Origin: Escherichia coli
GTDB lineage: Bacteria; Pseudomonadota; Gammaproteobacteria; Enterobacterales; Enterobacteriaceae
DNA: 64,000 nt
Assembly: GCF_009931435.1 (NCBI RefSeq)
Contig: NZ_CP043414.1
Reading direction: 5' to 3' (one strand)
A program made the translations under genes and the position numbers. Position 1 is the stretch's first letter; every line of letters begins with the position of its first letter. Positions 61,516-61,890 of the stretch are shown here, one piece after another. Below the pieces are notes generated by a model. That model did no database searches and was not told the origin of the DNA. It saw nothing but the letters and a program-made list of their open reading frames with translations.

Positions 61516-61890
61516 ATGCCTGATGCGACGCTTATCGCGTCTTATCAGGCCTACAGGTTTTACGTAGGTCGGATAAGGCGTTCACGCCGCATCCGACATT
61601 GAGTGCATAATGCCTGATGCGACGCTTACTGCGTCTTATCAGGCCTACAGATTTCACGTAGGTCGGATAAGGCGCTTACGCCGCATCCGACATTGAGTGC
61701 ATAATGCCTGATGCGACGCTTACCGCGTCTTATCAGGCCTACAGGTTTTACGTAGGTCGGATAAGGCGTTCACGCCGCATCCGACATTGAGTGCATAATG
61801 CCTGATGCGACGCTTACCGCGTCTTATCAGGCCTACAGGTTTCACGTAGGTCGGATAAGGCGTTCACGCCGCATCCGACAAACGCTGCCA
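61516..61890. repeat. REP/BIME array: four tandem ~94-bp units, each with two inverted REP palindromes
   Basis: atgcctgatgcgacgcttaYcgcgtcttatcaggcctacag...gtaggtcggataaggcgYtcacgccgcatccgaca recurs at 61516, 61610, 61704 and 61798. Confidence 0.9.

Follow-up and report, generated by a model that had tools for sequence, protein, structure and literature searches.

A four-unit tandem REP array of the BIME-2 type between the convergent genes yfcL and mnmC of Escherichia coli

Structure of the yfcL-mnmC gap

The window, that is, the whole 64-kb stretch of DNA that was analysed, contains near its end two converging genes, yfcL on the + strand and mnmC on the - strand. Their 3' ends are separated by a gap of 403 bp, which is filled by an array of REP sequences. 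yfcL is the final gene of the + strand run yfcA-epmC-yfcL. The longest open reading frame (ORF) of mnmC extends to 63964, although homology with the 2007-nt K-12 gene indicates that the true start probably lies near 63904. Searching the window with a loose y/z REP motif returned the eight REPs of the array and no others. The features of the gap and its flanks are as follows (window coordinates, strand, description):

61216..61494, + strand: yfcL coding sequence, 92 aa, with a TAA stop at 61492-61494 (ORF; Pfam PF08891 YfcL, E=2e-33; RefSeq homologous loci)
61495..61517, no strand: 23-nt spacer between the yfcL stop and the first REP (sequence)
61518..61554, + strand: z2 REP no. 1, GCCTGATGCGACGC-TTATC-GCGTCTTATCAGGC-CTAC (motif scan; RNA hairpin of -20.5 kcal/mol)
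61555..61563, no strand: S linker AGGTTTTAC, joining the CTAC of z2 to the GTAG of y (sequence)
61649-61657, 61743-61751 and 61837-61845, no strand: further S linkers (sequence)
61564..61597, - strand: y REP no. 1, inverted; the - strand reads GTCGGATGCGGCGTGAACGCCTTATCCGACCTAC (2 mismatches to the y consensus; hairpin of -17.4/-18.4 kcal/mol)
61598..61611, and again at 61692-61705 and 61786-61799, no strand: inter-unit linker ATTGAGTGCATAAT (sequence)
61612..61691, no strand: unit 2, comprising z2 at 61612-61648, S linker and inverted y at 61658-61691 (motif scan)
61706..61785, no strand: unit 3, comprising z2 at 61706-61742, S linker and inverted y at 61752-61785 (motif scan)
61800..61879, no strand: unit 4, comprising z2 at 61800-61836, S linker and inverted y at 61846-61879 (motif scan)
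61880..61897, no strand: 18-nt spacer between the last y REP and the mnmC stop codon (sequence)
61898..63964, - strand: mnmC, longest ORF (ORF; RefSeq annotation of homologous loci)

Tandem Repeats Finder reports a single array at 61516-61880, with a period of 94, 3.9 copies, 95% matches, no indels and a score of 681. The count is 3.9 rather than 4 because the last unit has no 14-nt inter-unit linker. A repeat search of the window finds copies of 182 nt at a spacing of exactly 94 nt, and the motif scan places eight REPs, in four 94-bp units, over the span 61518-61879. Each unit runs in the order 37-nt z2 REP on the + strand, 9-nt S linker, 34-nt inverted y REP and 14-nt linker. The z2 REPs are laid out as GCCTGATGCGACGC-N5-GCGTCTTATCAGGC-CTAC and the inverted y REPs, read on the + strand, as GTAG-GTCGGATAAGGCG-N4-CGCCGCATCCGAC. 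A sequence-only reading of this DNA had described a four-unit REP/BIME array with a 94-bp period between convergent yfcL and mnmC, and Tandem Repeats Finder, the REP motif scan and the Pfam and RefSeq assignments of the flanking genes all agree with that description. Its further statement that the REPs are paired and inverted also holds, the members of each pair being of opposite orientation (CTAC...GTAG) and of different types, z2 and y. The interval that it gave, 61516-61890, places the array correctly but runs about 10 nt too far, as the last REP ends at 61879.

The four units are all pairwise distinct, and every one of the 6 columns in which they differ falls in a hairpin loop or a short linker; duplication of identical copies during assembly therefore does not account for the array. 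An inverted-repeat finder reported 0 long inverted pairs, because mismatches break up the REP arms, which are themselves short, and because the members of a pair belong to different types (z2 and y). The REPs were instead located by motif scans and folding. In predicted RNA folds every REP forms a hairpin, with an energy between -17 and -21 kcal/mol whichever strand is folded, and in all of them the stem is interrupted after the 7th or 8th pair by an internal mismatch of 1-2 nt. When the entire intergenic region was folded, its z value against shuffled sequence was -10.5 for the + strand and -11.6 for the - strand.

A promoter scan of the gap (61495-61897) found no sigma-70-like promoter, and a terminator scan of both strands over the same interval found no intrinsic terminator consisting of a hairpin and a T-run. 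The second result bears on the idea that the array is a canonical bidirectional, Rho-independent terminator, or else encodes small proteins in two 41-aa ORFs on the - strand, a reading to which we attach very little credence. GC hairpins are indeed abundant, and the ORFs (61532-61657 and 61720-61845) exist mechanically, but on neither strand does a T-run follow any hairpin. As for the ORFs, they are products of the repeat itself, situated within REPs and opened by a GTG codon; Pfam has no match to them, and they were set aside as repeat artefacts.

Liang, Rudd & Deutscher reportedly described, in 2015, stalling of ribosomes by a REP that begins within ~15 nt of the stop codon. Here the first REP begins 23 nt after the yfcL stop, and the REP nearest to mnmC lies 18 nt after its stop, so that both gaps exceed this distance. 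Escherichia sp. MOD1-EC7003 (locus 2770-2800) has lost the spacer downstream of yfcL, which extends the ORF (…QQHNA*) and puts its TGA stop inside the 5' arm of the first z2 REP.

Class of the element

Knowledge of REP/BIME arrays goes back to the 1980s, and their copy number is documented to be polymorphic. Two classes of BIME are relevant here. BIME-1 consists of z1 and y REPs with a long L linker, often containing an IHF site, and is present as a single copy; BIME-2 consists of z2 and y REPs with a short S linker and is found in tandem copies, the number of which varies between strains (PMC3333891). The REPs of the window were typed using consensus sequences from the literature together with the definition in PMC3333891.

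Judged by its sequence, the element is a BIME-2, and agrees with that class in every sequence-level feature. It contains four z2 REPs (GCCTGATGCGACGC-N5-GCGTCTTATCAGGCCTAC) and four inverted y REPs (GTAGGTCGGATAAGGCG-N4-CGCCGCATCCGAC), and the Y and Z2 hairpins can also be seen in the Rfam alignment. REPs and inverted REPs alternate, CTAC ending each z2 and GTAG opening each y on the + strand. They are joined by a short S linker of 9 nt (AGGTTTYAC/AGATTTCAC), with no long L linker. The copies are multiple and in tandem (3.9), and vary between strains, where alleles of 1-4 units differ by 94-bp steps. The array is extragenic, no part of it reaching the stop of either yfcL (61494) or mnmC (61898), and its predicted hairpins are imperfect palindromes with a conserved mismatch or bulge in the stem. 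It is thus an ordinary member of a long-known class. A REPtron, in which a REP/BIME cluster directly flanks a tnpA-REP/RAYT gene, is a different arrangement from that seen here, where the immediate neighbours are yfcL and mnmC.

The sequence-only reading had also held that such arrays bind IHF, and this claim is not supported at the present locus. The gap 61495-61897 contains zero matches to WATCAANNNNTTR, even when up to 2 mismatches are allowed, and IHF sites are a feature of the L linker of BIME-1 (PMC3333891). That the element might be an IHF-binding RIB/RIP element (BIME-1) is accordingly a reading with next to no probability: the literature associates REP clusters in general with IHF, and there is nothing further in its favour, whilst the REPs found here are z2 and y, with no z1, and the linkers, of 9 and 14 nt, contain no L motif. 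The locus corrects an over-general statement, in that IHF binding belongs to BIME-1 and not to BIME-2.

Copy number and evolution of the array

Of 5,426 complete E. coli genomes, a single one gave no match to the locus. Among 59 chromosomal hits sampled at even spacing, the match spanned one unit (418 bp matched) in 51, a shorter allele (353 bp) was present in 5, and the locus was interrupted or only partly matched in 2. The 48-nt junction y-linker-z2 occurs in 14 of the 5,426 genomes, twice in eight and once in six of them, and always at the yfcL-mnmC locus; in the ranked list for the same collection, three units are present in eight genomes and two in six. None of the 5,426 carries a four-unit allele at this site. 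The intergenic distance is 55 bp where only a single y REP is present and 120 bp in K-12, which has one unit, while distances of 121, 215, 309 and 403 bp correspond to 1, 2, 3 and 4 units, in exact 94-bp steps. Variation of copy number between strains, which the sequence-only reading had expected and proposed to check by comparing unit number with other E. coli genomes, is confirmed by this series (55, 120/121, 215, 309 and 403 bp), and the comparison itself returned one unit or a single y REP in nearly all genomes and two or three units in 14 of 5,426. None of the E. coli genomes searched equals the window in the number of copies at this site, yet another Escherichia species has more.

In one E. 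coli genome, strain CEC12044 of serotype O103:H2 (NZ_AP038983.1, locus ~1224-2500), the yfcL-mnmC REP is interrupted by IS621, a member of the IS110 family. IS621 is a REP-targeting recombinase guided by a bridge RNA. The insertion lies precisely after ...TTATCAGGCCT, in the CTAC tail of z2, and the end of the insertion sequence, ...ATCT, precedes ACAC.

The window is 93-96% identical to K-12 across syntenic genes and 92.8-95.7% across syntenic blocks, and only 16 of the 5,425 matching complete 'E. coli' genomes are at least 99% identical to it. By sequence identity, then, the window represents a divergent lineage and not typical E. coli. The multi-unit alleles belong to the group of its close relatives, the genomes at least 99% identical to it. 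Among the GTDB representatives of Escherichia species, none is more than 95.6% identical to the window in the yfcL region. An origin of the lineage in cryptic Escherichia clade I is a guess.

Other parts of the window also depart from K-12. Some 8.6 kb, at 29690-38336, gave no BLAST alignment of more than 500 bp to the K-12 stretch with which it was compared (2,444,000-2,493,999). This region adjoins a tRNA gene (38972-39043, - strand) that is the positional counterpart of argW, the site of the CPS-53 prophage in K-12, and is presumably a different island at the CPS-53 integration site. Between 49709 and 56230, in the yfc fimbrial region, the window is far more diverged from K-12 than in its surroundings: 49709-53783 is only 79% identical, and 53783-56230 has no alignment of more than 500 bp.

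Elsewhere in the genus, the yfcL-mnmC site carries two units in E. whittamii, three in Escherichia sp. E1V33 and five in Escherichia sp. MOD1-EC7003, and one unit each in the species representatives E. albertii and E. coli E69. In species representatives of other genera the gap between the two genes is short (22-123 bp) and often contains REPs of types of their own. Superficieibacter electus has a gap of 262 bp with two copies of a ~130-bp repeat of a different REP type. Between its inverted REPs there is a match to the IHF consensus, TATCAACAGTTTG, which makes that element BIME-1/RIB-like, unlike the array of the window. A degenerate DNA pattern for the right junction gave zero matches in the species-representative genomes. 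The pattern was too specific, and missed these genomes because CAAACRCTGC, the sequence of K-12 and of the window, is replaced in them by CAAACAATGC or CAAATAATGC.

The linker between units points to the way in which the array was built. A comparison of flanks and linkers across Escherichia indicates that the 3' part of the yfcL-side spacer (61495..61517), CTGGAGCGTCAT, is homologous to the inter-unit linker. The left flank of E. whittamii, CTGGAGCATAATGCC, compares with the window linker TGAGTGCATAATGCC, and the corresponding pair in E1V33 is CTGGAGCACCATGCC (left flank) and TGGGAGCACCATGCC (linker). The linker between units thus derives from the left flank, from which it has diverged, and what was duplicated in tandem to give the array was the whole block of flank, z2, S and y. 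Import of the linker from a donor locus was considered and rejected; it is needless given that the linker resembles its own left flank, and the exact junction is found only at yfcL-mnmC. A word-11 BLAST search for a donor recovered only a generic linker family at other BIMEs, with 85-88% identity over 34 nt. A single base separates the linker of the window from that of MOD1-EC7003, which suggests that the multi-unit state is partly old. Once formed, such an array would change its copy number in 94-bp steps, most simply through unequal recombination or replication slippage between units.

Diversity within the units was estimated from an alignment of 18 units from 8 genomes. Per site it is 0.8-3% in stems, 14-16% in loops and 21-35% in linkers, and flanking coding DNA differs by 5-10%. 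As the stems are less diverse than the loops, the linkers and the flanking coding DNA, they must be either constrained or homogenised. Units are 96.4% similar within a lineage, as against 93.4% between lineages, and in related strains the variants of loop and S linker are shuffled among units, as expected from unequal exchange.

These observations bear on the main rival to a functional interpretation, namely that the array is a neutral or selfish cluster of REPs that does nothing for the host at this site. Unequal crossing-over would let its copy number drift, and gene conversion or the TnpA-REP/RAYT tyrosine transposase would maintain the uniformity of its stems. The shuffling of variants is in keeping with this rival, as is the range from half a unit to five units across Escherichia with the flanking genes unchanged. 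Only a single y REP is present in ~8% of sampled E. coli genomes, and one unit in most. In addition, TnpA-REP can cut and recombine BIMEs in vitro, and differences in the number of BIME-2 copies have been ascribed to this enzyme (PMC3333891). Against this, a REP has been kept at the convergent junction in every Escherichia genome examined, other genera carrying their own types, and the stems are more conserved than the surrounding coding DNA. Local effects of REPs in 3' UTRs have also been described (bioRxiv 10.64898/2026.03.23.713779). The absence of any host function seems to us doubtful, though it deserves to be taken seriously; it is compatible with a functional model, and the two are not exclusive.

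Possible roles and comparison with known systems

By analogy with characterised REP elements, the functional model is the one that we favour, and with considerable confidence. The array is a BIME-2 of four tandem 94-bp units in a 403-bp convergent gap, a non-coding and non-autonomous repeat whose mode of working would be bidirectional and involve both hairpins and gyrase. There is no U-tract terminator in the gap and therefore both transcripts must end in, or traverse, the eight hairpins. Each of the converging transcripts would meet eight stable structures of -17 to -21 kcal/mol. These would be expected to block 3'-to-5' exonucleases and so stabilise the upstream mRNA, and to attenuate readthrough, partly in a Rho-dependent manner, so that less antisense transcription enters the opposite gene. 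The y REPs may in addition offer gyrase sites that are independent of transcription, at a place where convergent units pile up positive supercoils.

Several published findings are relevant to this model. Gyrase cleavage sites are over-represented in BIME-2, with a preference for y REPs (PMC6379681), and binding or cleavage by gyrase at the y REPs of the present array is by analogy plausible. REP325, which has a y/z2 architecture, acts both as a partly Rho-dependent terminator and as an mRNA stabiliser, and REPs between convergent genes correlate with higher expression of both (bioRxiv 10.64898/2026.03.23.713779, a 2026 preprint). The same study reports that the effects of REPs depend on context and that terminal REPs are not generally tied to longer half-lives. 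The suggestion of the sequence-only reading that the array might serve as an mRNA stabiliser or weak terminator fits the literature on such elements. Neither yfcL nor mnmC is mentioned in the text supplements of PMC6379681 or in the main text of the preprint.

A different role is suggested by Rfam, the naRNA4 model of which matches the array as follows:

61567-61645, 61661-61739 and 61755-61833, + strand: naRNA4 (RF02564) modules, 81-82 bits (- strand, 49-51 bits)

The three y-linker-z2 modules on the + strand, the sense strand of yfcL, exceed the gathering cut-off of 59.5. A nucleoid-condensing role has been proposed for naRNA4, and the architecture is shared with REP325 (PMC4550694). On this basis the array might give rise to naRNA4-like nucleoid-associated RNAs, y-linker-z2 RNAs that bind HU, bridge cruciforms and condense the chromosome. 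The model is generic, however, scoring 87-93 bits at yghU-hybG and 61 bits at the y-linker-z1 junction of exbD-yghA, and an array of n units yields n-1 matches, with none for the one-unit K-12 allele. Moreover, deletion or over-expression of REP325 leaves nucleoid volume unchanged, and contacts between REPs are neither enriched nor dependent on HU, according to a preprint whose authors include the original senior author (bioRxiv 10.64898/2026.03.23.713779). A role of this kind is highly unlikely here, and the Rfam match to 'naRNA4' marks only a BIME junction; it is a label and not a function.

Within the hairpin/gyrase model that we prefer, it is natural to ask what the additional units might do. 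Copy number could act as an evolvable 'dial', such that going from the one unit of E. coli proper to the four or five of divergent Escherichia lineages would quantitatively alter termination and stabilisation of the yfcL operon and mnmC transcripts, or gyrase loading, and would be kept by selection rather than drift; we regard this as improbable. Against the functional model it can be said that one unit or a single y REP suffices for most E. coli, so that the extra units may be of no selective value. Nor does the conservation of the stems have to reflect a host function: homogenisation against the genome-wide pool of REPs could explain it, and so could recognition by the REP-associated transposase. 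The array alone matters little. The natural series of 0.5, 1, 2, 3, 4 and 5 units at a single convergent gene junction would nevertheless provide a convenient system in which to test whether the number of REPs tunes 3'-end formation or gyrase activity.

Set beside the BIME-2 class in the classification of Gilson, Bachellier and Hofnung, the array of the window has in common the alternation of z2 and y, the S linker between CTAC and GTAG, the tandem arrangement, the extragenic site at gene 3' ends and the variable number of copies. There is no structural difference; the usual linker motif takes a form particular to this locus and lineage, the 14-nt ATTGAGTGCATAAT between units, as against AATCGTGCATAAT at yghU-hybG. 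With BIME-1, or RIB/RIP, it shares an inverted pair of REPs at the 3' ends of genes, but the z1 and y composition, the long L linker with an IHF site and the single copy are all absent from it.

REP325 (naRNA1-6), between yjdM and yjdN of K-12, is likewise composed of tandem y and z2 units, six in number as against four in the window. Both arrays are matched by the Rfam model, and a mode of action as a 3'-UTR terminator and stabiliser is likely to be common to the two. The linker sequences differ. REP325 is situated between tandem genes of one operon, whereas the array of the window lies between convergent genes and would act on two transcripts. The counterpart in K-12 itself, the yfcL-mnmC REP with its 120-bp intergenic region, has the same site, the same z2-S-y pair and the same flanks, but consists of one unit without an inter-unit linker, where the window has four units.
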